A stretch of DNA of 60,352 nucleotides, counting the filler. It is 7 parts of 7 records of this genome, joined end to end, with 100 filler letters (N's around TTAATTAATTAA, not from the genome) between each part and the next. Parts side by side here need not be neighbours in the genome. Positions count along the whole stretch, not along the records: positions 35,732 to 49,612 come from SRR31156797_36287; 6 more parts are not named here. One strand, given 5' to 3'. Both the position numbers and the translations under genes were made by a program. The notes below the pieces were generated by a model that searched no databases, was not told the DNA's origin, and saw nothing but the letters and a program-made list of their open reading frames with translations. Shown piece after piece: positions 18,385 through 49,436 of this stretch; the first letter of the stretch is position 1; the number at the start of each line of letters is the position of its first letter.

Positions 18385-18492
18385 ATCCCTCTTGATCATC
18401 TCCACGGCTGCGGCGGGGGGTAGGCCGGATATTTCATGAATTCGTCGGAGTCAGAAGTGTTTTTAGATAATCCGCTGTGTTTGCGTCTCACA

Positions 18493-20634: not shown

Positions 20635-20722
20635 TTATGGCAACCCGGCTGTCTGCATCTTATCCAAGGCACAGACCCGTGGCTTTCCGGCCCCGCCTCT
20701 CGACGGGTGTGGCTTTATGTTT
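20635..20722 (-). ncRNA. c-di-GMP-I (GEMM) riboswitch
   Basis: Minus strand AAAG-CCACACCCGUC-GAGA-GGCGGGGCCGG-AAA-GCCACGGGUC...GACAGCCGGGUUGCC matches the GEMM P2 GNRA hairpin, AAAGCC junction and P3 ends; about 150 nt 5' of the GGDEF gene. Confidence 0.88.
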
Positions 20723-21495: not shown

Positions 21496-21524
21496 TTGAC
21501 AAGCTATGCTTGATTTTGTACTTT
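21496..21524 (+). promoter_or_regulatory. Putative sigma-70 promoter for dppA
   Basis: TTGACA-17 nt-TACTTT about 65 nt upstream of the ATG. Confidence 0.5.
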
Positions 21525-21587
21525 TTTTCAAATCACATGCTGGTTCTCTTTAAAAGTTGTTAACCTGTTACAGAGGAGAAGATTGAG

Positions 21588-22907: not shown

Positions 22908-23007
22908 NNNNNNNNNNNNNNNNNNNNNNNNNNNNNNNNNNNNNNNNNNNNTTAATTAATTAANNNNNNNNNNNNNNNNNNNNNNNNNNNNNNNNNNNNN
23001 NNNNNNN
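22908..23007. other. Artificial contig linker
   Basis: N-run + TTAATTAATTAA + N-run. Confidence 0.99.
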
Positions 23008-23008
23008 G

Positions 23009-23833: not shown

Positions 23834-23959
23834 GGTCTGCTCGACCGGAGGCGGGGAAAACGTTGCAATTCTCTATTCGGCCTCATAGGATAGCTTCCCG
23901 AAAATTGGTCCTATTGGTCCCATGGGACCTAAGCTGAACCATCCTATGATGTCAGGGAG

Positions 23960-25441: not shown

Positions 25442-25516
25442 TTCGGCCGGCGCGGAACGGTATGATGACGAATGACGCTGCGACTGGACGCGCGGCACTG
25501 AAATGGAGCGGCAATT

Positions 25517-26452: not shown

Positions 26453-26520
26453 AAACCGAGCAGGCCTCGATGATTCTCAGCTTGCTCGGATCAGATTCTG
26501 GGAGGAAATGGCGTAGAGGC

Positions 26521-26703
26521 TTACGAGGGGCGTCGGGCCGCGCGTTGGGCTTTGCGCATGCGACGGCGCTCACGCTCCGAGGGCTTCTCGTAATAGGCGT
26601 TGCGCTTCATATCACGGATGAGGCCTTCTTTCTCACACAGCTTTTTGAAGCGTCTAATCATTTGCTGCACCGACTCGCCTGTACGCATCTTAACCTTTAG
26701 CAC
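26521..26703 (-). CDS. rpsU: 30S ribosomal protein S21
   Basis: ESVQQMIRRFKKLCEKEGLIRDMKRNAYYEKPSE; AAGGAG RBS before GTG at 26703. Confidence 0.93.
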   Translation of the reverse strand: MLKVKMRTGESVQQMIRRFKKLCEKEGLIRDMKRNAYYEKPSERERRRMRKAQRAARRPS

Positions 26704-26992
26704 GCAATCGACTCCTTTAATATGTGGATATCCGGTCCAAATCAACGATACTGAAAGCACTTACGCTCAATCTCGACGTAATACGCGAATCTCTAAATCT
26801 AATAGCTGGGCTCGACGTTTACAAGTCCAAAATCGAGGCGTGGCTGGCTTTTTCGGCAAATTATGGGCCCCTGGGCCCTCCTGGCGGTCGTCCCCGGCCG
26901 GCGCCGGAACCGGCTTTGGCAGCGGCAGTTGCGCTTGAAAACGGGGCGCCGGTGTGCTATCATGGCCGTGTTTTTAGGAGGTATGGTTCTAC

Positions 26993-28309
26993 TTGGAAAA
27001 GTTTCGTCAGACCCTGAAAGTCAAAAAGGAGCGTGCCATTCTGGTGGCCGCGATTCTGTCGAGGTCGAATGGCTCGGATGATCTGGGCGAGTTGACGGCT
27101 CTGGCCGAGAGTGCCGGGGCGATGGTGGTCGACCGTTTTCAACAGAAAATCCGCACGATCAATCCCGCGACGTATATCGGCAAGGGCAAGGCCGCCCAAC
27201 TGGCGCGGCGTGTCAAGCAGCATCAGGCGGATGTGATCATCTTCGAGAACGATCTCTCTCCGGGCCAGATCCGGGAGTTGGAGAAGCTGGCCGAGGCCAA
27301 GGTGCTGGACCGTAGCGAGTTGATTCTCGATATTTTCGCGACCCGGGCCAAGACCAAGCAGGCCAAGCTCCAGGTCGAGCTGGCCCAGTTGGAGTACACC
27401 TACCCGCGCCTGACGCGGATGTGGTCCCACCTCGATACGGTGGCCGGTGCCGGGGGGGCGGGCTCGGTCGGTGCGGTCGGCGGAATCGGTACGCGCGGTC
27501 CGGGCGAGCAGCAGTTGGAAATCGACCGGCGCCTGGTCACCAAACGCATCAGCGAGCTCAAGCGTGAACTGGCGGGCATCGACAAACGCAAGCTGCGCGA
27601 GATCCAGGGTCGCCATGGCCTGTTCAAGATCAGCCTGGTCGGCTACACCAACGCGGGCAAGAGCACACTGCTGAACACCCTGACCGATGCCGGCGCGTTC
27701 GTCGAGGACCGGCTCTTTGCCACGCTCGATACACGGACGCGGAAGTGGTCGCCTTCCAAGGGTGTTGAAGTTCTGCTCAGTGACACGGTGGGCTTCGTGC
27801 GGAAGCTGCCCCACCAACTCGTGGCGTCGTTCAAGGCGACGCTGGAGGAGACGGTCAACGCCGATCTGCTGCTGCACGTCATCGACGTGTCCAGCGACGA
27901 CGCGCTCGGTCAGATGGAGTCGGTCAATGCGGTGCTCGACGAGATCGATTGCGGGCGCAAGCCTACGCTGCTGGTACTCAACAAGGTCGATGCCATCACG
28001 AACATCAGCCAGTTGGAGACGCTTGAGACGGTCTATCCTGACGCCGTGGCGATTTCGGCCAAGAGCGGCTTGGGCCTCGATGAATTGTGCGAGAAAGTCA
28101 CCGAGTGCTATCGCGGCAGCGAGGTGGTACTGCGCGTCAGCAGCCATCAGTCCAACGGGAAGGTCCAGAGTTTCTTGCGCGCTCATGGTCGGATCATTAA
28201 CGAAGAGTACGGCGACAGTTCCGTTTTCATCGAAGTCAAGATGGGCCAGAACCAACTGCCCGAGCTCCAACGCCTCAAGCCCGACACCCTCGAAATCGTC
28301 GGGCACTAG
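26993..28309 (+). CDS. hflX: Ribosome-splitting GTPase HflX
   Basis: YIGKGK, ILDIFA.RA, LQVELAQL, GPGE, GYTNAGKST, LFATLD, DTVGF, NKVD. Confidence 0.96.
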   Translation: MEKFRQTLKVKKERAILVAAILSRSNGSDDLGELTALAESAGAMVVDRFQQKIRTINPATYIGKGKAAQLARRVKQHQADVIIFENDLSPGQIRELEKLAEAKVLDRSELILDIFATRAKTKQAKLQVELAQLEYTYPRLTRMWSHLDTVAGAGGAGSVGAVGGIGTRGPGEQQLEIDRRLVTKRISELKRELAGIDKRKLREIQGRHGLFKISLVGYTNAGKSTLLNTLTDAGAFVEDRLFATLDTRTRKWSPSKGVEVLLSDTVGFVRKLPHQLVASFKATLEETVNADLLLHVIDVSSDDALGQMESVNAVLDEIDCGRKPTLLVLNKVDAITNISQLETLETVYPDAVAISAKSGLGLDELCEKVTECYRGSEVVLRVSSHQSNGKVQSFLRAHGRIINEEYGDSSVFIEVKMGQNQLPELQRLKPDTLEIVGH

Positions 28310-28378
28310 AAGCGCGTGGCCGGCGCCTGAGCATCGTCGCGAGATAAGCGAGTGAAAGTTGATTGGAGGGAGACGGCC

Positions 28379-28471
28379 ATGAGACAGAGTCCGTTTGCAC
28401 GTTACCGAGGTTTGACTAGCGAAGTCATAACTGTCCTTCTCGTGGTTGTGGTTCTTGCTGCCCTCTTTCTC
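28379..28471 (+). CDS. 5' end of a membrane or prepilin-like protein (truncated)
   Basis: GGAGG RBS; MRQSPFARYRGLTSEVITVLLVVVVLAALFL runs into the linker. Confidence 0.4.
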
Positions 28472-35277: not shown

Positions 35278-35309
35278 AAAGATGCCCGGCTTGATAGTTG
35301 GGCATCTTT
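35278..35309 (+). terminator. Rho-independent terminator
   Basis: aaagatgcccggct-tgat-agttgggcatcttt followed by T-rich sequence. Confidence 0.65.
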
Positions 35310-35893: not shown

Positions 35894-37384
35894 ATGCTGT
35901 CGGATATTAAATCCATATTCAAACATTCCTCGGTATACGGATTTTCAACCATTCTTCAAAAGGGGATTGGTTTTTTTATGATCCCTGTATATACGGGGTT
36001 CTTATCCCCATCAGATTACGGGATACTTGAATTGATGGAACTGACCATCAACATTATATCAATGCTGATAGGTCTTCGTCTCGGTTCAGGAATTATCCGG
36101 TTTTACCACGAGTATGAAACAGAAGAAGAACGAATCGAATTGTTTTCAACGGCCTTGATTTTCGTCGTGTGCAGCACCATTTTATTAGTTGCTGTTTTGC
36201 AGCTCTTTACACATCAGTTTGCAGATTGGGTACTTGGCGATAGTAACTATTTTAACTATTTTCAAATCATTTTCACGGCAATGGGGCTCCAGATTATTGC
36301 AACTGTGCCGGAAAGCATACTTTTAGCAGAAAAAAAATCGGCAATTTATTCTGGTGTTACAATTTTCACCCTTTTTTCCTACCTTGCTTTAAATGTATTA
36401 TTTCTTGTCATTATAAAAATAGGGGTAATTGGCATACTTTTAAGTATGCTAATTACAAAAATACTGAATACTTCATTTTTACTGATTATATCACGTCGAA
36501 AATATTCGTTCCGGTTTTCCTTTCAAAAATTAAAGAAGATGGTGAAATTTACGCTTCCGCTTGTTCCCGCATCTTTTTTTATGTTTGCCATGCACTATGC
36601 CGATCGTTTTTTTATTCAAAAATTTTGTGATCTTAATGAATTGGGTCTTTATTCTTTGGGATATAAATTTGGTATGATAATTTCTGTTTTAATCTCAGGG
36701 CCGTTTTTTCGTATATGGAATACAAAAAGATTTGAAATGGCAAAAGATGAAGATGCTAAACAGAAAATGGGGCTGTTTTTCACATACTATACGCTGGTCA
36801 TCACTATAGCGGCTTTGGGCATTTCAATTTTTATACGCGAAGTCATTCTGATTATGACACCGGAATCCTATTCCGGTGCAACTTCCATAGTGGCCGCCAT
36901 AACCATTGCCTATGTTTTATATGGTATTTCCAATTTTTTTAATCTTGGCATGATGCTGACATATAAAACAAAATACTTGGCCTACACCCAGATGGGCGTG
37001 TCCGTGTTTAATATAATCATAAATTATTTCCTGATTCAGTGGTGGGGTGTCAATGGGGCTGTGGCAGCAACATTGCTTTCGTTTTTTTTCTTATCAATTA
37101 TTTCATTGGTGGTTTCCCAACACCTCTACCCCATTCGAATAGAGTATATGAGAATTGGTATACTTTGGATCTTGTATTTTTCTTTCTATTGGGCTTCGTC
37201 CTTTATTCGGTTTGGAATTGTTTGGTCTTTAACTTTGAAGGCATTACTTTTTATCGGATTTCCCCTGATATTGTATTTGACGGGCTTTTTTACAAAAATA
37301 GAAATTGAAAAAACCAAAGAATTGTCAACTGCCATAATGACGACTGTGAAAAATAATACCTTGGTTTTGTTAAAAGGAAAGTAA
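35894..37384 (+). CDS. Wzx/MOP-family oligosaccharide flippase
   Basis: Many TM helices; KHSSVYG, LSPSDYG, YADRFFI, LGLYSLGYKF. Confidence 0.88.
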   Translation: MLSDIKSIFKHSSVYGFSTILQKGIGFFMIPVYTGFLSPSDYGILELMELTINIISMLIGLRLGSGIIRFYHEYETEEERIELFSTALIFVVCSTILLVAVLQLFTHQFADWVLGDSNYFNYFQIIFTAMGLQIIATVPESILLAEKKSAIYSGVTIFTLFSYLALNVLFLVIIKIGVIGILLSMLITKILNTSFLLIISRRKYSFRFSFQKLKKMVKFTLPLVPASFFMFAMHYADRFFIQKFCDLNELGLYSLGYKFGMIISVLISGPFFRIWNTKRFEMAKDEDAKQKMGLFFTYYTLVITIAALGISIFIREVILIMTPESYSGATSIVAAITIAYVLYGISNFFNLGMMLTYKTKYLAYTQMGVSVFNIIINYFLIQWWGVNGAVAATLLSFFFLSIISLVVSQHLYPIRIEYMRIGILWILYFSFYWASSFIRFGIVWSLTLKALLFIGFPLILYLTGFFTKIEIEKTKELSTAIMTTVKNNTLVLLKGK

Positions 37385-37387
37385 TAT

Positions 37388-38326
37388 ATGTCATTTAAGC
37401 TTACCATTTTAACCTTTCACAAGGTTGTGGACAATCCGTATTTTATACCGCCAATGGCAGTCAGTGTAAAAACCTTCAAAGGCCTCTTAAAAAGGCTGCA
37501 TTGGTTAGGGCGTATAATCTCCTTATCCCAGGCGGCAGAAGAAATAAAAAATGATACACTCAGGGGAAACAATTTAGCCATTACATTTGATGATGGTTAT
37601 CTTGATAATTATGGAACAGCTGCGAATATTCTTTTAAACTACCGCCTGCCGGCAACGTTTTTCGTCCCTTTTAACCAAATAGAGAAACAGGAAATATTTT
37701 GGTGGGACCATGTGTTTTTTTTGGTGGAAAAGAACTTTCAACGGTTTCACCAGTGGTTTGCCGAATTGAACCAAACAATTTCAATTGATGGATCTAAAGC
37801 CCCGGAAAAATATGCAAGACAGGTTGTTCAGGTTTTGAACGGACTTTCAGAAAACAAAAGACACCAGATTATATCAGGTTTAAATGCTGAATTTGGAAAG
37901 TATAAGGGTCCTAGACAACTGATGACCTGGGATGAGATAAAAAGTCTTGTTCACAAGGGTTTTGAAATAGGGTCCCATACCCTATCCCACATACCGTTAA
38001 CACACCTTGACGACCGGCAAGCGAAATATGAAATTTCATACTCAAAAAAATGCCTATCGGACAAAATCGGACAGGATGTAAAAGGATTTTGTTATCCAAG
38101 AGGGGCTTTTGAAAGTCCGCACTTAGAAATGGTCAGACAAAGTGGATATACTTATGCTGTCAGTACAAAATTCGGATCAAATACAAAATCTTCTAATACA
38201 TTCGCGTTTAATAGGAGAGCCATTTCCGATTATCCAGATTTTAGAAATACGGTTGCAAGCGGCATTCATCTTTTTGAACTTACAGGGGCTCTTGATAGTG
38301 TTTTGTTAAAAAGGCGGATCGCTTAA
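37388..38326 (+). CDS. Polysaccharide deacetylase (CE4/NodB)
   Basis: LTFHKV, ITFDDGY, MTWDEI, IGSHTLSH, FCYPRG. Confidence 0.92.
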   Translation: MSFKLTILTFHKVVDNPYFIPPMAVSVKTFKGLLKRLHWLGRIISLSQAAEEIKNDTLRGNNLAITFDDGYLDNYGTAANILLNYRLPATFFVPFNQIEKQEIFWWDHVFFLVEKNFQRFHQWFAELNQTISIDGSKAPEKYARQVVQVLNGLSENKRHQIISGLNAEFGKYKGPRQLMTWDEIKSLVHKGFEIGSHTLSHIPLTHLDDRQAKYEISYSKKCLSDKIGQDVKGFCYPRGAFESPHLEMVRQSGYTYAVSTKFGSNTKSSNTFAFNRRAISDYPDFRNTVASGIHLFELTGALDSVLLKRRIA

Positions 38327-38327
38327 A

Positions 38328-39593
38328 TTGGCTTTAAAATCTATACTTTTTATTCTGATTGTACTTTGTGCTTGTGCCGGCTCAATTATAATTACCCCGT
38401 TCATCGGATTGTGTGGTTATATTTTATCCTACAATATTAACCCCATTGGATTCTGGTGGGGAAAACAGCTTCCAGATATATTTCAACGGTATTCATTGAT
38501 TTTTTCATTGGCCTGTTTCGGGGGGATGATCATCCATTGGGGAAAATTGAAATACCGCAGAATTCTGGATCGGCAGGAGATTCTTCTAATACTCTTCATA
38601 ATTATAATTTGGTTATCTACCTTGACGGGTGTGCAGACACTCAATTTAGGTGAGAATAGTATGAAGATGACAAAAATTTGTATTATTCTTCTTGCCGCCT
38701 CTCACATAATAACAAATTTAAAATATTTGAATATTGTAGTATGGATTTATATATTAAGCTCATTATATAGCGGATTCGAGATTTATACCGCAGACTATCT
38801 ATCCTTTGCGGGTGGAAGGCTCCAAAGTGGCGTTGGGGGGTCTGATTTTGCTGAAGGCAACTTTTTAGCAGCCCACTATTTAATGGTTTTACCCTGGGTC
38901 GGCATTTATTTCATAAAAGGAAACATAAAAAATAAAATTATTTGTGTCTCGGCAGCCGCCATTATCGTCAACACCCTTATTTTAATAGAATCTAGGGGCG
39001 CGTTTTTAGCATTAGGGCTTGGGTCTGTCTGTGCCATTATTATTGCCGGGAAAAAATATAGAAACAAAATTATATTAGTTTTATTAATGGGCATTTCTGG
39101 TTTTATCTACCTGTCAGATACCTCCTTTTGGACTCGGATGGACACCATTGAAACAAGTGAGGCGTCCATGGACCGTTCTGCTGCAGGGAGAATCGAAGCC
39201 TGGTATGCCGCCATCGAAATGTTCAAGGATTATCCTTATGGCGTTGGAGAAGGCAATTTTAAAGTCTTAGTGGGTTCTTACAACCCTGATGCTGCAGGCC
39301 GGGATACCCATAACACTTTTTTTCGGTGCTTATCTGAACTTGGTCTGCAGGGACTTTTAACACTCCTGTTTATGATTTATACAGCATTTTCGTATCTGGG
39401 TATGATACAGAAGCATTTGGATATAAACTCACCTATTGGTCAAGAATACAATTTGCATATTATTGCGTTGCGAATTAGTTTGATGATGTACCTTGTAACA
39501 ACACTTTTTCTTAGCCACACTTATATCGAAGAATTATATTGGTTATTAATGTTCCCATTGTTTTTAAAAAGATGTTATGAAAATGAATTCTAA
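38328..39593 (+). CDS. O-antigen ligase/polymerase (Wzy_C) family membrane protein, exosortase-locus type
   Basis: Multi-TM; ESRGAFL, SAAGRIEAW, PYGVGEGNF, DTHNTF..ELGLQG. Confidence 0.85.
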   Translation: MALKSILFILIVLCACAGSIIITPFIGLCGYILSYNINPIGFWWGKQLPDIFQRYSLIFSLACFGGMIIHWGKLKYRRILDRQEILLILFIIIIWLSTLTGVQTLNLGENSMKMTKICIILLAASHIITNLKYLNIVVWIYILSSLYSGFEIYTADYLSFAGGRLQSGVGGSDFAEGNFLAAHYLMVLPWVGIYFIKGNIKNKIICVSAAAIIVNTLILIESRGAFLALGLGSVCAIIIAGKKYRNKIILVLLMGISGFIYLSDTSFWTRMDTIETSEASMDRSAAGRIEAWYAAIEMFKDYPYGVGEGNFKVLVGSYNPDAAGRDTHNTFFRCLSELGLQGLLTLLFMIYTAFSYLGMIQKHLDINSPIGQEYNLHIIALRISLMMYLVTTLFLSHTYIEELYWLLMFPLFLKRCYENEF

Positions 39594-40656
39594 ATCCTCT
39601 GTTTGTGTTGTCTCTCCTTTTCCGCCGCCATTCGGAGGAATGGCAGTTCAGGCAGAAAAGTTAGCCTGCCTTTTGGAAAAAGAGGGGTATAAGGTAACTA
39701 AAGTTGCAACAAATAATGAATTTCCATACCGATGGCGCTTCCTTGAAAGACTCCCCTTCTTTAGAACCATTGCAAGGCAGATATTGTTCCTGATTTCTTT
39801 GAACAGGTTGTTGTCAGGCGTTTCAACCGTTTATTTTTTAACAGGCTTTTTTAATTTCTTTTTCTGGGTAACCTACCCCGGGCTTGTTCTTATTTTACTT
39901 AGAAAAAAAAGAGTGATTTTAAGTGCCCGGGGGGGAGGGGCAAGATTATTTTTCAAAAAACACAGGGTTTTCATTAAACCCATACTTCGAAAACTTGACG
40001 CAATCACAGTTCCTTCGGGATTTTTAAAAGCCGCTTTTCAAGAAGAATTGGGGATAGATACCATTGTCCTTCCCAATATAGCAGATCTCAAGCAATTTAA
40101 ATTCAGACGACGTGATCGTTTTTCACCAAGGTTGATAGCAACCCGCTCCCTTGAAGAAATATATGACCTGCCAACCGTCATCAAGGCATTTTCACGTATA
40201 AAATCCCGTTACCCTGAGGCACATTTGGGGATTCTGGGCGGTGGGAGTCTGAGGCAGATGCTAGAAACAATGGTGGAAGAATTAGGGCTTAAAAAAAATG
40301 TGATGTTTTACGGTGAAGTTACACACAATCGGATTTCTGAAATTTACAATCAATACGATATTTTCATAAATGCCTCCAAGGTTGACAACCTTCCCGGTTC
40401 AGTTCTGGAGGCGTTTGCCGCAGGTCTGCCTGTGATATCAACCCGGGCCGGCGGAATTCCTTTCATGGTAACCCATAGGGAGAACGGGCTGTTGTCAGAT
40501 ATTGGTGACGATAAGACCCTTGCCAAACATGTTCGGCAAATACTTGAAACCCCTGAACTCGGCAGAGCGCTTACCATGAAAGGATATGGGGAACTCCGCA
40601 GATACACCTGGCCTTATATCAAAACCGTATTATTTCCCCTGCTGACCGATGAATAA
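39577..40656 (+). CDS. Glycosyltransferase family 4
   Basis: PFPPPFGGMA, TRSLEEIYD, DNLPGSVLEAFAAGLPVIST. Confidence 0.9.
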   Translation: MKMNSKSSVCVVSPFPPPFGGMAVQAEKLACLLEKEGYKVTKVATNNEFPYRWRFLERLPFFRTIARQILFLISLNRLLSGVSTVYFLTGFFNFFFWVTYPGLVLILLRKKRVILSARGGGARLFFKKHRVFIKPILRKLDAITVPSGFLKAAFQEELGIDTIVLPNIADLKQFKFRRRDRFSPRLIATRSLEEIYDLPTVIKAFSRIKSRYPEAHLGILGGGSLRQMLETMVEELGLKKNVMFYGEVTHNRISEIYNQYDIFINASKVDNLPGSVLEAFAAGLPVISTRAGGIPFMVTHRENGLLSDIGDDKTLAKHVRQILETPELGRALTMKGYGELRRYTWPYIKTVLFPLLTDE

Positions 40657-41632
40657 GACCGACGTCTATATAACAGTTGACACGGAACACAGCATCGGAG
40701 GGGCTTTTCAGAATCCAAAATTCAAGCCGGTTGGAAATAAAAAGAGGGTTTTCGGGAGAATAGGTGATAAACAATATGGTATCCCCCTTATCATGGATAT
40801 CGCAGACCGTTACGGATTGAAAATCGTCTTCTTTGTGGAGGTCCTGAATAAATACGTATTTGGAGAGGATGAGACCAGAAAAGTATGCGATTACATTCAG
40901 GAAAGAGGTCACGAAATTCAGCTTCATCTGCATCCTCATTATTTGAATTTTAAAGAAATTCACCCTGAAAAATTAAAATATAAAGATAATTTATACCTTT
41001 ACGGCCTTGATGAGCAGACTGCGCTGCTTGAAAAGGGCCGGTACTTGCTGGAAAGATATGATGTACAAACTCCTGTGGCATTTCGGGCAGGAAACTACGG
41101 GTTCAACAGATCGTCTCTAACAGCGTTGAAGAATACCGGATTCAGATATGACAGCTCCTATAATCATACATTCATCAGACAGGTCCAGGGATTTGGGAAC
41201 CTGGTCCTGAACGACGCTAAAAAAATCGATGGAATTTGGGAATTTCCCATTACCAATTTCATCCAAACATTTCCAAAGCGGAAACCAAAGCCGCTTGATC
41301 TGAACGGGGTTAGTTCGAATGAGATGATCCGTACACTGCAATGGGCGAACAAGTCCGGACTGTTGAAACATATTACAATCATTCTGCATTCATTCAGTTT
41401 TCTTGAACCATTGGATGTCCAATATTCCAAAGTCCGGGTCCGGCAGTATGTGATAAATCGATTTAATGCAATCTGTCGTTTTTTGTCCGAAAACAAAAAT
41501 AGCTTTTGCGTCAGAGGATTCAATGGATTGGTTGTTGATGAATCAGACGCTTCCAGCCACGAATTTTTACAAATGCCGAAATGGGCCTCTGCGAGGCGGT
41601 TGGCCCAACAGGCATTGCACCGATTTATTTAG
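40649..41632 (+). CDS. Polysaccharide deacetylase-like (CE4 superfamily)
   Basis: ITVDTE, GHEIQLHLH, FRAGNYG, YDSSYN, ILHSFS. Confidence 0.82.
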   Translation: MNKTDVYITVDTEHSIGGAFQNPKFKPVGNKKRVFGRIGDKQYGIPLIMDIADRYGLKIVFFVEVLNKYVFGEDETRKVCDYIQERGHEIQLHLHPHYLNFKEIHPEKLKYKDNLYLYGLDEQTALLEKGRYLLERYDVQTPVAFRAGNYGFNRSSLTALKNTGFRYDSSYNHTFIRQVQGFGNLVLNDAKKIDGIWEFPITNFIQTFPKRKPKPLDLNGVSSNEMIRTLQWANKSGLLKHITIILHSFSFLEPLDVQYSKVRVRQYVINRFNAICRFLSENKNSFCVRGFNGLVVDESDASSHEFLQMPKWASARRLAQQALHRFI

Positions 41633-41667
41633 GTTCATTATGAATTTAAACCAAATGATATTATTAG

Positions 41668-43785
41668 ATGATGAGAGGTAAAATGGGAACATCCAGGATA
41701 AAGGCGGGGATTATAGGTACTGGTTTTATTGCAGACCTTCACATGGAAGCGTTGAACCGGATTAAAGACGTAGAGGTCGTATGTTGTTGCGATACGAATA
41801 TGGGGCGCTCCCAAAGTTTCTCCAAACGATGGAAGATCAGGTCCTGCTATGATGATCTAGCCAAGATGATTGAAGTTGAAAAAATGGATGTGGCCCATGT
41901 TTTGGTTCCACCCAATTTTCATTTACCGGTTTCCCAAACCCTTATGGAAAAAGGTGTCCATCTTTTTCTTGAAAAGCCAATGGGGTTGACCAGCCAGGAG
42001 TGCTCTGAAATCGTAAACACCGGAAAAAAAAACAATGTTCAGGTCGGTATTAATCATAATTTTGTTTTTTATCCCCTTTTCCAAAAATTAAAAAAAGATT
42101 TGGCAAATAATAAAATCGGTAACCCCGAATATATCTGCGCATATTACGGTGGGCCGCTTGGGCAGCTTGATTTTAATCAATTCGGCAACTGGATGTTTCA
42201 AAAACCGGGAAATATACTTTTGGAGCAGGGTCCCCACCCCATATCCCAGGTGACAAATATCCTGGGCGACATCAAAAGTATCTCCGCAAAAACAGGTCCG
42301 AAAAAAGAGTTGGGGAAAAATCAGTTTTTTTATGACCGGTGGCAGGCCCTGGCTGAGTGTGAACAAGGCAATGCTTTTTTACATCTTTCATTTGGAAAGC
42401 AATACTCCAACCAGCGCAATTTTCATGTATTCGGCCGTGACGGATCCATATTTATTGATTTTTTAAACAACAGATATCTGGTTCAGAAAAAATCTCTTTT
42501 TCCTGACTATCTGGACCCAACGGCAAATGCCATGAGATACACCTGGCCGGCGATGGGCGGTCTAAAGGATTTCAGCGACTACGCCATGTCCAAAGTAAAG
42601 CTTAAAGACCGTTCAGACTCGTTTTTTATAACCATGAAAAATTCAGTGAAAGCTTTTTATGATGCATTTTCAAAAGGAGAAGCGCTTCCCTGTACCGGGG
42701 AGGACGGAGAAAAGGTCATCAAAGCCTGTGAAAGATGGATTGATGCATCACAGATAGAGGAAAACCCGAAACAAACCTATGTGTTTAAAACAGCCCAGGA
42801 TGATGATGAGGTTCTTGTAACCGGTGCCACCGGCTTTATCGGCAGCTGCCTGGTAGAACAATTGATTGAAAAAGGTATAAAAGTCAGAATCTTGGTCCGG
42901 AATATTCATGGTCTTGCCCCTAGTCTGTATTCGGATAATGTCAGGATTATTCAGGGCGATATTACAGATAAAGAATGTATCAAAAATGCAGTTAAAGGCG
43001 TTAAAACCGTTTATCATCTTGCTCACAGCCTTGGGAAGAATTGGGATGAATTTGACCGCTTTAACATTCAGCCTGCTCGCTATTTTGCCGAGGCCTGCCT
43101 TGAAGAAAAATCAACCCTTGTATTTGCCAGCACCATTGCGGTTTATTATTATGGGGATTTATCTTCAGGGATTGTGAAACATGACAGTCCCATTGATTCG
43201 GAACCCGAACTTAGAAACGGGTATGCCAGATCAAAAGTTGTGGCAGAAAACATGTTGATGGAAATGCATAAAAAACAAGGGCTTTCCCTTATCATTGTCC
43301 GGCCGGGTATTGTCGTTGGAAAGAACGGCATCCTGGAACACAGCGGTGTTGGATTGTGGACCCGGGATAATGTCTGCGCATATTGGGGCAGCGGCAAAAA
43401 TGAACTGCCCTTCGTGCTGGTGGAAGATACTGCCCGGGCCTTGGTCAATATCATGGAAAAAGAGGGCCTGGAAGGTAGTCGACTTAATCTGGTGGGTGAT
43501 GTCAGATTGTCGGCAAGGGAATATATTGACGCTTTGAAATTGTATTCCAAGAGAGATATTTCGGCGTTTGCCTACCCTTCAAGGCTTATGTACCTGTCTG
43601 ATGCCTGCAAAATCCTAATAAAGAAAATCGGTGGAGATAAAAACACATTCCTAAGTTACCGGGACCTTGCCAACCGCTCTGTAAATGCGAAATTTGATAC
43701 AGGTTTTGAAAAACAGGCACTCTCTTGGCAACCGTCTTCAAATAGAGAGGAGTTCATTCAAAAAGCCTTATCTTGGGCGTTTTAG
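41668..43785 (+). CDS. Gfo/Idh/MocA oxidoreductase fused to an NAD-dependent epimerase/dehydratase (extended SDR)
   Basis: N-terminal GIIGTGFIA..LEKP; C-terminal VTGATGFIG, YARSK (YxxxK), RPGIVVG. Confidence 0.88.
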   Translation: MMRGKMGTSRIKAGIIGTGFIADLHMEALNRIKDVEVVCCCDTNMGRSQSFSKRWKIRSCYDDLAKMIEVEKMDVAHVLVPPNFHLPVSQTLMEKGVHLFLEKPMGLTSQECSEIVNTGKKNNVQVGINHNFVFYPLFQKLKKDLANNKIGNPEYICAYYGGPLGQLDFNQFGNWMFQKPGNILLEQGPHPISQVTNILGDIKSISAKTGPKKELGKNQFFYDRWQALAECEQGNAFLHLSFGKQYSNQRNFHVFGRDGSIFIDFLNNRYLVQKKSLFPDYLDPTANAMRYTWPAMGGLKDFSDYAMSKVKLKDRSDSFFITMKNSVKAFYDAFSKGEALPCTGEDGEKVIKACERWIDASQIEENPKQTYVFKTAQDDDEVLVTGATGFIGSCLVEQLIEKGIKVRILVRNIHGLAPSLYSDNVRIIQGDITDKECIKNAVKGVKTVYHLAHSLGKNWDEFDRFNIQPARYFAEACLEEKSTLVFASTIAVYYYGDLSSGIVKHDSPIDSEPELRNGYARSKVVAENMLMEMHKKQGLSLIIVRPGIVVGKNGILEHSGVGLWTRDNVCAYWGSGKNELPFVLVEDTARALVNIMEKEGLEGSRLNLVGDVRLSAREYIDALKLYSKRDISAFAYPSRLMYLSDACKILIKKIGGDKNTFLSYRDLANRSVNAKFDTGFEKQALSWQPSSNREEFIQKALSWAF

Positions 43786-43797
43786 GGTATTATCGCT

Positions 43798-44907
43798 ATG
43801 AAAAAAATACTTCATGTAATCGAGCGGTTCAATGTGGCAGGCGCAGAAGTGGTTGTCCGAGATATTTTAAAAGCCGCAGATAAGGATAAATGGGAAACAG
43901 AAGTATGCGTACTCCATGATATCGGTGTAATCGGGAAAGAAATGTTTGAACAAGGTTATCCTATTCATTTTTTAGACTGGACCCAGGAAGGCTTAAGTGA
44001 TGCCGCAGTCGCGAAAAAATTAAAATCTGTGATACGGAATAGAAATATTGATATCGTCCATGCTCATAATGTAACGCCATGGTATTTTTCATATAGAGCC
44101 CTGAAAAAGGAGTCCATAAAACTCTGTGTAACGATACACGGATTCATAAAAGGCCAAGGAAGTTTAAGGAAAAAACTATTCTATATTTTCCTGTCCAGAT
44201 TCACAGACCAGATTATTATGGTCTCTGAGTCGATTCAAAAGGATGTTTCAAAGCTTCCTTTGATGAATTTGAAGGACTCGAAGGTGATTGTTAACGGTAT
44301 TGAATTGGTCCAAAACGAGGAAGTCGATTACGAGGCCGTTAGGCAGGAAATCGGACTCAAGCAGGAAGATTTTGTAATCGGGACTGTTGGAAGACTTTAT
44401 GAAGAAAAAAACATTGAAATGCAGCTTGAGATGGTTGGACAATTGGCCAAAAAGATTCCAAATTTAAAATTGGTTATTGTATCAAAAAAATATGACTATA
44501 TCAAAAAACTGGAAGTAATGATTGATGATTTAGGCATCGGGGATAAGGTTGTCTTTACCGGGCTGCGCAGGGATATTCCGAGAGTTTTATCAATGTTTGA
44601 TATTTTTGTGATGACATCTTTTTCAGAAGGGACATCAATCGCGCTTTTAGAGGCTATGTCTTCAGGACTTCCTGTCGTTGTCAGTGAGGTGGGAGGCAAC
44701 CCGGATGTTATACGGCATAACGACAATGGTTTATTATTCAATGTTGACGATTTGACTGATTTTTGCAGCCACATACAGATGCTTTATAAAGACGCGGCTC
44801 TTCGCAAGGATTTAGCTGCAAAGGCAAAAGTCTCCAGCAAACGATATGCCATTGAAAACATGATAAAAGAATACGATTCTGTTTATCAAAAACTTTCTAA
44901 CCTGTAA
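43798..44907 (+). CDS. Glycosyltransferase family 4
   Basis: AGAE, IVHAH, GTVGRL..EKN, SEGTSIALLEAMSSGLPVV. Confidence 0.92.
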   Translation: MKKILHVIERFNVAGAEVVVRDILKAADKDKWETEVCVLHDIGVIGKEMFEQGYPIHFLDWTQEGLSDAAVAKKLKSVIRNRNIDIVHAHNVTPWYFSYRALKKESIKLCVTIHGFIKGQGSLRKKLFYIFLSRFTDQIIMVSESIQKDVSKLPLMNLKDSKVIVNGIELVQNEEVDYEAVRQEIGLKQEDFVIGTVGRLYEEKNIEMQLEMVGQLAKKIPNLKLVIVSKKYDYIKKLEVMIDDLGIGDKVVFTGLRRDIPRVLSMFDIFVMTSFSEGTSIALLEAMSSGLPVVVSEVGGNPDVIRHNDNGLLFNVDDLTDFCSHIQMLYKDAALRKDLAAKAKVSSKRYAIENMIKEYDSVYQKLSNL

Positions 44908-44931
44908 TTCACTTTTAAAAGGAAATGGAAT

Positions 44932-46146
44932 TTGATGTATTCTAATTTTGCGATTCTGCCTAATTGCAATGTAAGGGCAATGGAAGGGGTTGTTTCTTCC
45001 CTGGGAAAAAGAGGAATCCCTTTGGTCTGCCTTAGCACAACCGATCAATGCAGTGCGTTTCATTCGAAATATGCTCAAAAAAAATTAATATCTCCCCCAA
45101 CAACGAGTGAGGAAGATTTTTTAAAATTTCTGATATCAAAGGTGCCTAGGGGGGTATTATATGCATCTGACGATCAAACTACCCTATTGTTTTCAAAAAA
45201 TGCAGATTTATTAAAAAAAGAAGGTTTTTTAATAAATATTCCCGAATACTTTCAACTGAAAACCGGATTTGATAAATGGCTCTGCTTTAAGAAAGCAACC
45301 AGCATAGGTATTCCTTGTGCTTACAGTTATAAGATATCCTGCAAGGATGATCTTTCCTATATAAAAGAAAATATGGCGGTTCCTTATATCTTAAAAGCGA
45401 CAACATTAGCGGGTGGAAATTATATTAAAATAAATCATAAAAGCGAATTAGAAAATGCCTATAAAAAAATACAGGCCACCATTGAAAAACAAAAAAATTC
45501 TATCCTGAATCCGGAAATAATTGCCCAGGAGTGGCTTGAGTATGAGATGGAAGACATTTGGTGCCTTGAGGCGTATTATGATAAAGGCGGTGTCCCACAA
45601 GGATTTATGCCGATTCGGAAAATAAGAACGGAGATAAAGCCGGATGGGACATACGGAAGCCGGTTATACGCTGGTGAATCCCGCCAATGTCCTGAACTGA
45701 CAGAATTATCCAGAAAGCTGCTGGATAGTTTAGACTGGAAAGGGTTTGCACATTTTGACTGGATTTTTTCCAGAAAAAAGAATCAATTTTTTTTAACAGA
45801 GATAAATCCGAGATTACCTGGGTTTAGTTTTTATCCATCCAATGCAGGTTTTGAAATGGCTTATTACTATTATGCCGACCTCACAGATCATTCTTATCAT
45901 ATTCCTAAATTTCGCCCCTCCTTGTATTTTGAACCTTTAAGATATCCTGGCGATATCTCGGCTTCAATATCTACCATTATTAGAAAACAGTACAGCGTAA
46001 AAACCTTTCTTCACTCTTATATCAGCATTCTTTTTTCAAATAGGCCTATCATCTTTGATTTTTTAGATATCCATGATTTTCGAATGACCGGCTATAATCT
46101 ATTTCGGATGGTATCTACAGTGCTCAGGGAATGTTTGAAAAAATAA
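44932..46146 (+). CDS. ATP-grasp carboxylate-amine ligase (D-aspartate-ligase-like)
   Basis: FDKW..IGIP, PYILKA, IAQEWL, GFAHFDW, FLTEINPR. Confidence 0.8.
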   Translation: MMYSNFAILPNCNVRAMEGVVSSLGKRGIPLVCLSTTDQCSAFHSKYAQKKLISPPTTSEEDFLKFLISKVPRGVLYASDDQTTLLFSKNADLLKKEGFLINIPEYFQLKTGFDKWLCFKKATSIGIPCAYSYKISCKDDLSYIKENMAVPYILKATTLAGGNYIKINHKSELENAYKKIQATIEKQKNSILNPEIIAQEWLEYEMEDIWCLEAYYDKGGVPQGFMPIRKIRTEIKPDGTYGSRLYAGESRQCPELTELSRKLLDSLDWKGFAHFDWIFSRKKNQFFLTEINPRLPGFSFYPSNAGFEMAYYYYADLTDHSYHIPKFRPSLYFEPLRYPGDISASISTIIRKQYSVKTFLHSYISILFSNRPIIFDFLDIHDFRMTGYNLFRMVSTVLRECLKK

Positions 46147-46212
46147 TTCGTAAAAACCAAGATAAGGCTCTTTCTTTACTTTGGTATAATTAAAAAAGAT
46201 AAGGATAAAAAC

Positions 46213-48816
46213 ATGGGTCCATTCTATCAATCTAAAATTCTTTCAAAGTTTAGGGGCTTTTTAAATTTATTGTCTATGAGTCGTGGCGAGGATAAACTTT
46301 CTGTCTATAGACAGATATATGAGATGATATATCTCTTTATATCAAGGGGACTGAGTCCCAATTACTACAATGATGCCGGGTTTGCCTCCAAAGATATCCC
46401 ATGGGAAACCAAAAAACTGTATTTGAGTTCAAAAAATTACTATAAGGCTGTATGGAAACTCAATAATAAAGATTACAGAAAACTGTCACAGAACAAAATG
46501 GCTGAAAAAGCCATGTTTTCATTATACAATATTCCGACACCGGCCTATCTTGGATATTTAGATGTGGCGAACGGCAGAACCCCTGAAGGTGCTCCTCTTT
46601 GTTCCGACGGGGATCTGTATTCGTACCTGGCGGGTCTCGTTGGACGGAGAGTCTGTTTCAAACTGCTGGAAGGATGGGGTGGCAAAGGATTTAAGGTTGT
46701 TGATGTGATAAAAAAAGACGGACAGGTTTGTTTAAGGCATTTAAACGGAGACATACAGCGCATTGATGCGTTTTATGACAATACCCTTAAATTTTCTTCC
46801 AATACTTCCTATCTGATGGAGGATTATTTCCAGCAGCATGAAAGCCTGCTCCGACTAAACCCCTCAAGCGTCAACACCATCAGAATCTGGGTGGTCACCC
46901 GGCCGGGCGAGAACCCTACAAGAGTGGTCGGTGCTTTTCTAAGGCTAGGTCGCAAAGGTAGTCTTGTCGATAATACGGACGCTGGCGGTTTTATATGCGG
47001 CATAGATCTTGATGGCGGACGACTGAAACATGGAGAAGAAGTATCCAGCAAAGAGATCATGTACGAAGTCCACCCAGACACAGGTGAACGGATAAAGGGC
47101 GAAAAAATACCATACTGGCATGACGCAAAAGCGCTTGCCATCAAAACCGTAACAACCTTTCCACACATTAACTTTGCTGGAATTGATGTCGCCATTGGCC
47201 CCCAAGGGCCGGTAATCATTGAGATGAACGTGCCGCCGGACCCAAGCGGCGGTGTTCAACTCGGGTTTTGCAGAAAGGATCTGGTTTCTGCGGAACCATG
47301 GTCTAAGCAAAAGGTTTTTAGTGATGCAGACGCACTCTTTCAAGAACTGTACAAAGTTTACCTTAAGTCAACGGATATAAAATTTCAGTCTGATTACGTA
47401 AAAGCCGGTACCATTTATTTTGCCATACCTAAATACAAACCTGGAGGTATAAAAAAACATATGGCAATATGCTGGTCTTTTCTGGAGCTACATGCCCATC
47501 CGCTATTAACGGCAGTAGAGGCCCTTTTAAAAACCACGCTTCCAAACAGCAGGATATACCGAAGCTATACTGAACTATTGGATTACAAGTTCAATCCGGA
47601 TGCATATGCTGAAAAAGCTATCGAAAATGGTGCTTTGCTGTCGGTGGTCAGCACGACAAAGTGGTCCGGAGACAAGTTCATCCAAGTACCGGATGTGGAA
47701 CATTATTTTTACCGGTTTGTTGACTATCATCGGCGAAAAATTAATATTCCGTTGATTGCCATTACCGGATCATGCGGCAAGACAACCACTAAAGAACTTT
47801 GTGCTGCCGTTCTTCAGCAAAAATATTCGCTGATTGCAACCGACCATAATTACAACACGGAGATAGGAGCAGCACTGACTCTTTTGAAAACTAAACAATC
47901 TGCTGAAATGGGAATTCTGGAGCTTGGATCTGCCGGTCCGGACAGTATTCGCAGAAAAGCTCAGATTGTCAAACCGACAGCAGGTTTGATCACAAAAATC
48001 GGTAAGGCCCACTTGGAAGGCTTTGGCAGTGTTGAGGGCGTTAAGCGGATAAAGGGGCAGTTATTTGAGCAAGTCGCAGAAAACCAAGGGCTTTTTTTTC
48101 TAAATCTGGATGACGAGCATATTAGGGACATCGCAGGCGGATATAAAAATATTATGACATATGGTTGCCATTCCGACGCCATGATACAGGGAAAAGTCCT
48201 TGAAAGCACCCCCTATCTCAAACTAGAATGGATATTGAATACCTCAGCTTTTAAGGAACAAAAGGGAGAGGCATATACGATCTCCACCCAATTGTTTGGA
48301 GGTTATAATCTAAGCAATGTTCTTGCAGCGATAAGCGTTGGTTTATATTATGGTGTTCCTGCTCAGGATATCTGCTCAGCCATATCTTCATACCGACCGG
48401 ACAATAACCGCTCCCAAATCGTTCACTGTGAGGATACCACATTGATTGTAGATGCATATAATGCAAATCCGACAAGTATGGCCGCGGCACTTGAAAGCTT
48501 CAGCAAAATGCCTGCTGAATCAAAGGTTGTCATTCTCGGAGATATGCTGGAACTTGGAAAATTCAGCAGGCAAGAGCACAGCAGAATTTTAAAGATGCTA
48601 ACAGCTATGGATTTGGATAAAGTCTTTCTTGTTGGCAATGAATTTGGGAAGTTCGAGGGAGAATATCCATACTGTTTTTTCAAAAATATTCAAAGTCTAA
48701 TGGACTCTGTTCAGGTTTATACCGTTCCTAAAACAACGGTATTCATCAAGGGTTCTAATAGTATTCAACTTGAAAAATTGGTAGAGCGCTTTAAGGATAC
48801 CTGTACTGTAAAATGA
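46213..48816 (+). CDS. Fusion: sugar-transfer-associated ATP-grasp domain + divergent MurF-like Mur ligase
   Basis: aa ~1-355: NK..IPTP, FK..GWGGKG, QH..L..LNPSSVNTIR, R.G..VDN..AGG, HPDTG, IPYW, GIDVAI..GPVIIEMN. aa ~370-867: ITGSCGKTTTKE, AHLEGFGS, NNRSQ, DAYNANPTSM, LGDMLELG, IKGS. Confidence 0.9.
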   Translation: MGPFYQSKILSKFRGFLNLLSMSRGEDKLSVYRQIYEMIYLFISRGLSPNYYNDAGFASKDIPWETKKLYLSSKNYYKAVWKLNNKDYRKLSQNKMAEKAMFSLYNIPTPAYLGYLDVANGRTPEGAPLCSDGDLYSYLAGLVGRRVCFKLLEGWGGKGFKVVDVIKKDGQVCLRHLNGDIQRIDAFYDNTLKFSSNTSYLMEDYFQQHESLLRLNPSSVNTIRIWVVTRPGENPTRVVGAFLRLGRKGSLVDNTDAGGFICGIDLDGGRLKHGEEVSSKEIMYEVHPDTGERIKGEKIPYWHDAKALAIKTVTTFPHINFAGIDVAIGPQGPVIIEMNVPPDPSGGVQLGFCRKDLVSAEPWSKQKVFSDADALFQELYKVYLKSTDIKFQSDYVKAGTIYFAIPKYKPGGIKKHMAICWSFLELHAHPLLTAVEALLKTTLPNSRIYRSYTELLDYKFNPDAYAEKAIENGALLSVVSTTKWSGDKFIQVPDVEHYFYRFVDYHRRKINIPLIAITGSCGKTTTKELCAAVLQQKYSLIATDHNYNTEIGAALTLLKTKQSAEMGILELGSAGPDSIRRKAQIVKPTAGLITKIGKAHLEGFGSVEGVKRIKGQLFEQVAENQGLFFLNLDDEHIRDIAGGYKNIMTYGCHSDAMIQGKVLESTPYLKLEWILNTSAFKEQKGEAYTISTQLFGGYNLSNVLAAISVGLYYGVPAQDICSAISSYRPDNNRSQIVHCEDTTLIVDAYNANPTSMAAALESFSKMPAESKVVILGDMLELGKFSRQEHSRILKMLTAMDLDKVFLVGNEFGKFEGEYPYCFFKNIQSLMDSVQVYTVPKTTVFIKGSNSIQLEKLVERFKDTCTVK

Positions 48817-49436
48817 AAATTATAGAAGCTTTTATATTATATTACCGTGTTAAGGCCCTCTCTTTATATTTAAGATCAAAAGGCATCTATTGTACGATAA
48901 ACGCCCATTTCAGGGATAAAAAAACTGCGCACAAATGGAGTACCGCATACAGTATTATAACAGGAAAAGTCCAATTGGGGGCTTTGCGTTCATTGGATAA
49001 AGGATATGACCTTGATGGAAACCGCTGGTATGAAGTCGCTTGGGATACTGGCGGAAGTGATGAAATACCAGCGAAAAACTGTTCTGCCATCAAAGAAAAT
49101 GCTTTGGCTTTATACGGTCCTGACAAAATCGTTTTTGCTGCAGAAGGATATGAGTCTGGTACGGCTAGGCGGAAACCGAATGTTAATGACATTCCCGTGT
49201 CAAAGCATGTTTACGGAGCAGCAATTGATATCAACTTACACTGGGACCGTATAGGTGGGCCGTGGAGCGGTAAGGCTAGAAGGCTTATGAGTGATTTTGG
49301 CTTGTTAAGACCCGTGTCAAATGAATGTTGGCATGTTGAACTCAATAAAAAAAAATCCCCGAGGTATTTACCCTATGAAATCCTATGGTTCTGGTTAAAA
49401 TCCAGGAGGAAGAGTATGTCCAACCACCTCAATTAA
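48813..49436 (+). CDS. M15-family (VanY/LAS-type) zinc peptidase
   Basis: SKHVYGAAID (SxHxxGxAxD) and NECWH (ExWH); ATGA overlap with the upstream fusion gene. Confidence 0.8.
   Translation: MKIIEAFILYYRVKALSLYLRSKGIYCTINAHFRDKKTAHKWSTAYSIITGKVQLGALRSLDKGYDLDGNRWYEVAWDTGGSDEIPAKNCSAIKENALALYGPDKIVFAAEGYESGTARRKPNVNDIPVSKHVYGAAIDINLHWDRIGGPWSGKARRLMSDFGLLRPVSNECWHVELNKKKSPRYLPYEILWFWLKSRRKSMSNHLN

Follow-up and report, generated by a model that had tools for sequence, protein, structure and literature searches.

An ATP-grasp_ST ligase fused to a MurF-derived ligase in a surface-polysaccharide operon

Mur ligases are the textbook enzymes of peptidoglycan synthesis and have several known offshoots, including folylpolyglutamate synthase, CapB, MurT, cyanophycin synthetase (CphA), CfbE and the pseudomurein ligases, all of which are ancient and distant. 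Here, we describe a gene in a DNA stretch of 60,352 nucleotides (the window; the part discussed comes from record SRR31156797_36287) whose 867-amino-acid (aa) product joins an ATP-grasp_ST ligase to a MurF-type ligase and is encoded in a Wzx/Wzy-type polysaccharide operon. What is new is a recent clade of MurF-derived ligases, apparently with a rebuilt acceptor end, whose members have been found twice fused to ATP-grasp_ST.

Among described systems, CphA1 is the only well-studied case in which an ATP-grasp and a Mur-type ligase reside on one chain and form amide bonds on one growing product. Unlike in the fusion, its Mur part has no MurF N-terminal domain, its ATP-grasp belongs to another family, and no glycan genes are needed. 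Natural Mur chimeras likewise join a Mur ligase to a pathway partner, which in the case of MurC-Ddl is an ATP-grasp, the D-Ala-D-Ala ligase Ddl. In contrast to the fusion, however, the chimeras listed in the accessible part of a survey (MurE-MurF, MurC-Ddl, MurC-MurB, MurG-MurC, MurD-FtsW and MraY-MurG only) are all peptidoglycan enzymes, none of which combines MurF with an ATP-grasp or contains PF14397, the survey's text being without the word 'ATP-grasp' (PMC10214165). Cj1438 of Campylobacter jejuni resembles the fusion in that a polysaccharide-cluster ATP-grasp, its C-terminal domain (Cj1438C), is fused to a pathway enzyme and forms an amide on a sugar carboxylate, namely the C6-carboxylate of glucuronic acid on the growing capsule chain, as stated in the available portion of the report; there, the ATP-grasp is TupA-like rather than PF14397, the partner is a GT2 enzyme, and the amines are serinol or ethanolamine phosphate (PMC11800379). 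The pseudomurein ligases pMurC/D/E are Mur-family enzymes that put peptide on a non-murein sugar and align to our model of the MurF half (7tzi, Z 31.9; 6vr8, Z 30.1), and a second, 404-aa ATP-grasp of the operon faintly matches the model of an archaeal pseudomurein ATP-grasp (9e-7). Unlike the fusion, these archaeal enzymes are individual proteins, and their sequences are much less similar (pMurC model, 76 bits versus a cut-off of 560). With Bacteroidota MurF, finally, the fusion shares the three-domain fold, the P-loop, the catalytic Glu/His/Lys, the DAYNANP and LGDMLELG motifs and ~40% identity over the central and C-terminal domains, whereas it lacks the D-x-R motif, the K-G loop and the GNxNNxIGxPL loop and has gained an insert, an ATP-grasp and a Wzx/Wzy operon. 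A literature search, with most subscription journals outside its reach, returned no paper that deals with PF14397 or describes a MurF paralogue from a polysaccharide cluster.

Architecture and occurrence of the fusion

In line with the original prediction, translation of the gene gave a single 867-aa open reading frame (ORF) without internal stop, with AAGGA located 7 nucleotides 5' of its ATG (Table 1). Pfam detected ATPgrasp_ST (PF14397, residues 82-342, 8.8e-39; 133.8 bits versus a gathering threshold of 31.4), Mur_ligase_M (517-709, 2.1e-37) and Mur_ligase_C (733-848, 9.4e-16), and gave no match to a Mur N-terminal domain in the fusion. Among NCBIfam models, TIGR01143 (murF) was passed narrowly (297.5 bits versus a cut-off of 288.6) and over residues 460-860 only, and TIGR02068 (cyanophycin synthetase) matched partially (4.6e-16; 58 bits versus 850). 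The closest named family for the fused ATP-grasp was the RimK-related TIGR02291 (2.5e-6), and no Ddl family model matched residues 1-365 among the 25 NCBIfam matches listed or the Pfam matches. Both halves are predicted to be carboxylate-amine ligases with intact active sites: K150, E203, R244, D325, E337 and N339 of the ATP-grasp are invariant across 46 sequences, and the ATP-site residues G519-T526, E570, H600 (the AHL His) and K614 of the MurF half are invariant in alignment A1 and in a 17-sequence clade described below, in agreement with the intact ATP site proposed earlier. The motifs quoted in that proposal were all found in place, namely GSCGKTTTKE (519-528), AHLEGFGS (599-606), DAYNANP (747-753) and LGDMLELG (775-782), as well as QSD (392-394), FNPD (460-463), HNYNT (545-549), ELGSAG (570-575) and KGSN (846-849).

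An exhaustive search of 1.84 billion representative proteins returned 42,444 matches at E <= 0.001, and among the best 150 of these, which were examined, P0002 (863 aa, 72% identity) was the sole other protein matching both halves. It is collinear with the fusion over residues 7-865 in one stretch and retains the linker (…DLVSAGRWPQQKVYSDAQELF…); a word-indexed search of 5.8 billion clusters agreed that P0002 is the sole other full fusion. The fusion ORF is therefore real and not an assembly artefact, as P0002 comes from another assembly and is stronger evidence than contig coverage. For the latter, continuity across the junction was seen in one of the runs only. Logan contigs of run X1, which is possibly the source sample and hence not independent, covered every one of the 30 bins and included a piece without any difference from 46897 to 47322, whereas in run X2, from a second study and ~94% identical, both halves were present at similar depth on two contigs that abut at 47246/47248 and are unbridged. 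Run X3 gave no cover. The 40 listed strain differences fell on codon positions 3/1/2 in the proportion 20/14/6, 18 of them being synonymous, and occurred in both halves.

Stand-alone versions of both halves exist and show how the fusion came about. The ATP-grasps P0278, P0279, P0122, P0280 and P0281 (54-61% identity) end at '…DLLSxDPW', where the linker starts, and MurF-like proteins (P0123 with 46% and about 16 others with 31-42% identity) start aligning at residues 367-395. In addition, the ATP-grasp_ST protein P0352 and the MurF-like protein P0126 are each recorded on a 15,364-bp ENA contig and are probably a split pair, the shared contig being deduced from its size and source alone. The split forms and this pair fit two consecutive enzymes. 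Together with the X2 contigs, which end at the domain boundary, the stand-alone forms could also suggest that two adjacent genes were joined by an assembly or sequencing error. We regard such an error as barely credible, given the same collinear fusion with a conserved linker in the assembly of P0002, X1 contigs that run through the junction with no loose ends reported there, and a linker with neither stop nor frame change.

The MurF half and its acceptor end

In Mur ligases, the N-terminal domain binds the UDP-MurNAc-peptide, the central domain ATP and the C-terminal domain the incoming amino acid(s), according to the part of the survey available (PMC10214165), and the uridine pocket of MurF sits on the N-terminal domain, as given in the accessible text of a further study (PMC11569785). 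The small clade that includes the MurF half, for which ~20 sequences were found, is marked by a shared N-domain insert of 48-54 residues. The insert is present in all 17 aligned members, between 'G.hhFA' and '(L/F)NG(N/S)', with a K…W..W…E…P signature, and absent from all aligned canonical Bacteroidota-like (29 of 29) and other-phyla MurFs (9 of 9). This bears out the insertion of about 50 aa that had been placed at ~47428-47586. An AlphaFold model of the MurF half (pLDDT 94.9, pTM 0.93; 56-sequence alignment) shows the insert as three helices (half-residues 44-58, 60-73 and 78-89; block pLDDT 94-97). A role of the insert as a membrane anchor was considered and dropped, as it is modelled as a well-packed helical unit. 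Over model residues 4-494, the model superimposes on all three domains of A. baumannii MurF (4qf5_B; Z 39.8, root-mean-square deviation 2.9, 427 aligned) and also matches T. maritima MurF (3zl8, Z 36.6), while the CphA1 structures 7wae (Z 31.2, 334 aligned) and 7lgq (Z 29.2) align to its central and C-terminal domains.

To define near-universal MurF columns, we required conservation of >=90% in the canonical set and >=85% in the other-phyla set, which gave 48 columns, and counted a column as lost if it differed in more than half of the clade. Seven were lost, all in the N-domain or the first half of the central domain: D392 and R394 (D-x-R), G457 (K-G loop), N549, P554 and L555 (GNxNNxIGxPL loop) and L582. 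No near-universal column was lost in the C-terminal domain. All 38 aligned MurFs (100%) have the D-x-R motif and the K-G loop, which are kept in only 6-11% of the clade. On the UDP-MurNAc-peptide side, the window shows D392->Q, R394->D and G457->D, with the 54-residue insert in between, and its substrate loop reads HNYNTEIGAAL, the clade keeping N549 in 0% and P554 in 6% of its members. In contrast, Bacteroidota-conserved C-domain columns are kept at 87-91% in the clade and 89-96% in the window, compared to 67-75% in other-phyla MurFs. Because the losses are confined to the N-terminal and central domains, the C-terminal domain is conserved and the domain roles are known, these patterns argue that the acceptor side is rebuilt and the side taking the (di)peptide is kept.

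The remodelled substrate-binding end of the original prediction thus agrees with the column counts, although its individual motifs require some correction. HNYNT in place of GN(Y/L)NN and the loss of the His from E(M/L)G..H in ELGSAG are genuine differences from solved MurFs. The change from DSR to QSD is real, but the alignment resolves it into D->Q and R->D within D-x-R. FNPD is present in the window but confined to the two fusions, most clade members keeping (L/F)NGN, and KGSN is no change at all, since S. pneumoniae MurF normally has it as well (KGSNS).

With an ATP-grasp and a Mur-type ligase on one chain, the two sites might alternate as in cyanophycin synthetase, the known enzyme of this composition, and build a repeating polyamide, free or anchored to a glycan. 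The alignment of the CphA1 structures and the partial TIGR02068 match are in line with such a mechanism. However, the score of that match is far below its cut-off, the MurF half is complete with its N-domain, has MurF as its best structural match and is nested in Bacteroidota MurF, the ATP-grasp is PF14397 and not of the CphA type, and the context is glycan assembly. We therefore consider this alternation very unlikely.

Operon context and the proposed chemistry

The fusion lies towards the end of a run of 11 co-directional genes (35894-49436, +) that overlap or are separated by short gaps, with a strong terminator-like hairpin upstream (35278-35309). Together they form a Wzx/Wzy-type surface-polysaccharide cluster and not one for peptidoglycan synthesis (Table 1). 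The second ATP-grasp matched NCBIfam models of the PRK12767 type (3.1e-8), Ddl_archaea (9e-7) and D-Ala-D-Ala ligase (3.5e-4), all far below cut-offs, and 'carboxylate--amine ligase' clusters in Atlas (0.98).

Table 1. Positions of the genes, domains and neighbouring features (window coordinates unless a locus is named)
Feature	Position	Strand	Basis or remark
Wzx-type flippase, first operon gene	35894..37384	+	Pfam Polysacc_synt 1.3e-19
Polysaccharide deacetylase, NodB type	37388..38326	+	Pfam Polysacc_deac_1 5.3e-24
Wzy-type polymerase / O-antigen-ligase-like	38328..39593	+	Pfam Wzy_C 3.1e-17
GT4 glycosyltransferase	39577..40656	+	Pfam Glycos_transf_1 9.7e-32
DUF2334-like (deacetylase-like), weak	40649..41632	+	Pfam DUF2334 2.1e-5, 24.6 bits, below cut-off 26
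GFO/IDH/MocA oxidoreductase-SDR epimerase/dehydratase fusion, sugar-nucleotide tailoring	41668..43785	+	GFO_IDH_MocA 2.4e-25, Epimerase 7.2e-31, NCBIfam
GT4 glycosyltransferase	43798..44907	+	Pfam Glycos_transf_1 7e-37
Second ATP-grasp (404 aa), of carboxylate-amine ligase type, which might make the dipeptide	44932..46146	+	NCBIfam, Atlas
Fusion ORF, 867 aa	46213..48816	+	ORF translation, Pfam, NCBIfam
ATP-grasp_ST domain, residues 82-342	46456..47238	+	Pfam; family homology ~residues 6 to 363
Fusion linker SKQKVFSD, ~residues 364-371	47302..47325	+	Alignments A5, A3; match ranges 6-363 / 372-859
MurF-type N-terminal acceptor-binding domain, D-x-R -> Q-S-D	47326..47748	+	Structural match to A. 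baumannii MurF starts at model residue 4
Clade-specific insert, residues 405-458, three helices, K..W..W...E...P signature	47425..47586	+	Alignment, AF2
Central ATP-binding domain, P-loop GSCGKTTT, loop HNYNTEIGAAL for GNxNNxIGxPL	47761..48339	+	Pfam, alignment
C-terminal domain, MurF-like throughout	48409..48756	+	Pfam; window keeps 89-96% of Bacteroidota-conserved columns
207-aa ORF, tentative M15/LAS (VanX/VanY-like) zinc peptidase	48813..49436	+	Start overlaps fusion stop (ATGA), translationally coupled
HflX	26993-28309		Up to 82% identity to Sedimentisphaerales/Phycisphaerae genomes
c-di-GMP-I-GGC riboswitch	20635-20722	-	RF03167, 66.7 bits, E 1.3e-13
HDOD-GAF-GGDEF diguanylate cyclase gene	18493-20487	-	
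Sulfotransferase gene, then gene for a 2749-aa surface protein	7817-16920	+	
Region of long overlapping ORFs	23873-26452	both	
Mur-Pth ORF, L206	6786-8723	-	
Mur-Pth ORF, L207	9820-11751	+	
Mur-Pth ORF, L213	6668-8605	-	
Mur-Pth ORF, L224	8019-9911	-	
Mur-Pth ORFs, L208 and L219			
Tandem ATP-grasp_ST genes, L207	7346-8563 and 8562-9755	+	2-nucleotide overlap

The last gene, translationally coupled to the fusion, encodes the 207-aa ORF, in which SKHVYGxAID (SKH132VYGAAID139) and ExWHxE (E171CWH174) are invariant in 4 homologues; these motifs match H-x6-D / E-x-x-H, the zinc-binding and catalytic signature of VanX/VanY-type zinc peptidases. Its similarity to Peptidase_M15_4 (PF13539) was slight (E 0.01, 16.8 bits versus a cut-off of 25), and Atlas placed it near M15B/VanY clusters (0.88-0.90). 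The model (pLDDT 71.5) gave nothing at E <= 0.001 in Foldseek and Z <= 3.5 in VIA, where 8 of 50 weak rows were LAS peptidases (DacB, VanYB, LdcB, Zn DD-peptidase, LysB4, VanX, Ply500 and VanXYg). Searches of the PDB with the single sequence or a profile found no sequence match, PHROGs returned just a non-significant tape-measure match, and only two homologue clusters were found among the 5.8 billion. One homologue, P0276 (67%), lies on a 27,140-bp Logan contig, and the contig of P0002 has the same size and source. We tentatively assign the ORF to the M15/LAS peptidases.

To place the ATP-grasp half, 185,579 species genomes were scanned with a 10-sequence alignment (A5). This revealed 47 loci of its subfamily (33-43% identity) in Massilia, Halieaceae, Porticoccaceae, Rheinheimera, Acidobacteriota, Desulfobacterales and others. 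In named genomes the subfamily resides in polysaccharide clusters, as the name of the family implies, several of the loci carrying GT4 (35-38%) and Wzy genes. Homologues of the first GT4 gene of the operon (35-38% identity) were present in L213, L224, L225, L231 and L240, and homologues of its NodB-type deacetylase (21-33% identity) in 16 of the 47 loci. Neither an insert-type MurF nor an M15-like ORF was found in the 10-kb flanks of these loci, and when 46 of these genomes were searched as a whole with a clade profile, the only matches were canonical MurFs beginning around position 90 of the model, with E <= 1e-75 in 8 of the 46. The subfamily thus normally works without an insert-type MurF, and because none of the 46 genomes carries one, the ATP-grasp has a job and substrate of its own.

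A different Mur-family protein was found one gene away from the ATP-grasp in 6 of the 47 loci, all from Halieaceae/Porticoccaceae. All four of those six that were checked with Pfam combine Mur_ligase_M, Mur_ligase_C and a peptidyl-tRNA hydrolase domain (Mur-Pth ORFs of 616-646 aa without Mur N-domain; PF01195, E 1e-40 to 7e-44), and P0103 has the same Pfam set. To our knowledge, no function has been described for this combination of domains. In L213 the ATP-grasp gene overlaps a deacetylase gene, and in L207, a Porticoccaceae metagenome-assembled genome, two ATP-grasp_ST genes stand in tandem beside the Mur-Pth fusion.

How might the two halves work together? Our preferred reading, for which we see about an even chance, is that the fusion carries out stepwise peptide decoration of a non-murein sugar in a Wzx/Wzy-made glycan by two consecutive amide-forming steps. 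The ATP-grasp_ST half would form the first amide bond on a repeat-unit sugar, either between an amino acid and a sugar carboxylate or between an acidic amino acid and an amino sugar freed of its N-acetyl group. The carboxylate left free in this way would be phosphorylated by the MurF half and coupled to a D-Ala-D-Ala-like dipeptide or an amino acid, which could be supplied by the neighbouring 404-aa ATP-grasp or the cell's own Ddl, and the coupled M15-like protein might trim or edit the D-aminoacyl end. Cj1438C, the only characterised polysaccharide-cluster ATP-grasp that we found, is a precedent for the ATP-grasp step. Architecture, rarity, the residues retained and lost, fold, ancestry and operon context are observed, and substrates, step order and product are those we infer from this arrangement.

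Several observations weigh against the stepwise decoration. TIGR01143 is still just above its cut-off, so that the sequence is compatible with ordinary MurF chemistry, and a separate housekeeping murF in the host is presumed from the genomes nearest to the window by HflX. Insert-type MurF is linked to polysaccharide clusters by this window alone and to ATP-grasp_ST by two fusions and one presumed split pair, and the conservation of the C-terminal domain is indirect evidence on the incoming substrate. Pfam detected no evident uronic-acid-forming dehydrogenase, aminotransferase or priming glycosyltransferase in the operon, and for this reason the acceptor sugar cannot be named. Every score that points to an M15/LAS peptidase is below significance. 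A genome scan with the whole fusion recovered no relative, and one with P0005 recovered nothing. The clade alignment A2 has its conserved words in common with canonical MurFs, so that a scan with it recovered these alone, most of them from Bacteroidota, and the one metagenome scan, with P0271, likewise recovered only canonical MurFs (25-39% identity).

In the original prediction, the fused ATP-grasp had taken the role of Ddl, passing a free and possibly novel dipeptide to the MurF half for transfer onto a non-murein acceptor. Indeed, Ddl and MurF are the textbook partnership of ATP-grasp and Mur ligase, the fusion brings both active sites onto one chain, and the M15-like ORF suits dipeptide chemistry; natural MurC-Ddl fusions exist as well, as listed in the available part of the survey (PMC10214165). 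The distribution of the subfamily argues against this role, since without an insert-type MurF in the 46 genomes such a dipeptide would have no user there. Moreover, the fused domain matches no Ddl model, being nearest to TIGR02291, the faint Ddl-type similarity is carried by the separate 404-aa ATP-grasp of the operon, and Cj1438C modifies a sugar carboxylate instead of free amino acids in the portion of the report at hand (PMC11800379). A C-terminal domain as well conserved as in true MurF does not suggest a novel dipeptide either. Taken together, we consider a Ddl-like role unlikely, and favour the stepwise decoration of a glycan sugar.

Ancestry, genomic surroundings and implications

To trace the MurF half, a quick IQ-TREE tree was built from 66 rows of the central and C-terminal domains (midpoint root, SH-aLRT support only). 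The clade fell inside the Bacteroidota MurF radiation (99), next to MurFs of Chitinophagaceae and one from an unclassified member of the Bacteroidota (96), while Phycisphaerae and other phyla made up the other half of the tree (97); the insert clade itself formed one side of a branch with a support of only 37%. Forcing the two fusions to group with seven Phycisphaerae MurFs cost 229.6 log-likelihood units and was rejected (approximately unbiased (AU) test, p-AU 2.7e-5; 27-row subset, LG+G4, the constrained group having been named after the first tree was seen). These analyses support the proposed Bacteroidota-like character and indicate that the MurF half is descended from a Bacteroidota-type MurF.

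The same tree contained other unusual MurFs. P0009 (672 aa) and P0199 (670 aa), in which a PF04488 (DXD sugar-binding) glycosyltransferase region is fused to a MurF with canonical N-domain, group with Parabacteroides MurFs (92% support). The MurF of L004, a contig titled Paratractidigestivibacter sp. (Actinomycetota), nests in Prevotella/Muribaculaceae MurFs (SH-aLRT 99); L004 is probably mis-binned, or its murF was transferred.

The HflX encoded in the window is closest to Sedimentisphaerales/Phycisphaerae, and all five genomes nearest by HflX contain a canonical MurF with 27-31% identity to the MurF half. When 401 Phycisphaerae genomes were sampled, the top matches reached 28-34% over the MurF part only (51 of 401 at E <= 1e-40). 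hflX has a GC content of 0.61 and a third-position GC content (GC3) of 0.81, like the loci of its nearest relatives (0.60-0.64), and the 28.4-60.3 kb block with the operon has a GC3 of 0.34-0.51. The MurF half therefore looks foreign, as suggested before, but not alone, since the whole block does. For two flanking low-GC genes, the five genomes nearest by HflX gave either no match or one of 22-26% identity, and the identity was at best 47%, in 9 of the 401 Phycisphaerae genomes. Across the window, GC content forms a mosaic, with ~0.58-0.62 (GC3 0.69-0.81) at 1-6500 and ~21500-28400 and 0.35-0.50 at 6500-21000 and 28400-60352, and a sharp step at ~28.4 kb that separates hflX from an MCP gene. 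Either the low-GC blocks represent islands in a genome of high GC content or the contig is mis-joined, which makes the host of the operon uncertain.

Could the fusion simply be the organism's ordinary MurF, making UDP-MurNAc-pentapeptide and joined by chance to a neighbouring gene? Its TIGR01143 score and its intact ATP site and C-terminal domain would all be explained. However, D and R of D-x-R as well as N549 and P554 are replaced, a 54-residue insert is present, the gene lies in a Wzx/Wzy cluster far from any dcw gene, and the canonical MurFs of the five HflX-nearest genomes are of a different lineage, as is also indicated by the AU test. This explanation is accordingly highly improbable.

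Outside the operon, a c-di-GMP riboswitch lies directly 5' of a diguanylate cyclase gene, a position that suggests control of a c-di-GMP-producing enzyme by a sensor of c-di-GMP. The 2749-aa surface protein encoded behind the sulfotransferase gene contains DUF4347, cadherin-like, LamG-like, Ig-like and DUF4214 regions. In 23873-26452, with a GC content of 0.59-0.65, long ORFs of 493, 435 and 311 aa overlap on the two strands, and for the two longest of them Pfam gave no match at E <= 1e-5.

A further, more specific possibility is that MurF-derived ligases, ATP-grasps and a VanX/VanY-like peptidase together put a D-Ala-D-Ala-type stem peptide on a secreted or surface polysaccharide. We consider this a long shot. 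Such a system may act on a lipid-linked repeat unit, in keeping with the predicted loss of the grip on UDP and the gain of a Trp-bearing helical sub-domain. If the product had such an end, bond energy would be carried outside the cell and transpeptidation could serve to cross-link or attach the glycan, yielding a second, non-murein 'peptido-glycan'. If the chemistry proposed for the fusion is correct, bacteria can graft murein-type peptide stems onto other glycans, which would bear on how surface polymers are anchored or cross-linked. The clade would also represent a natural re-engineering of Mur-ligase acceptor specificity by one insert and seven lost positions, and would call for caution in annotation, as its members are named 'MurF' in the sources.

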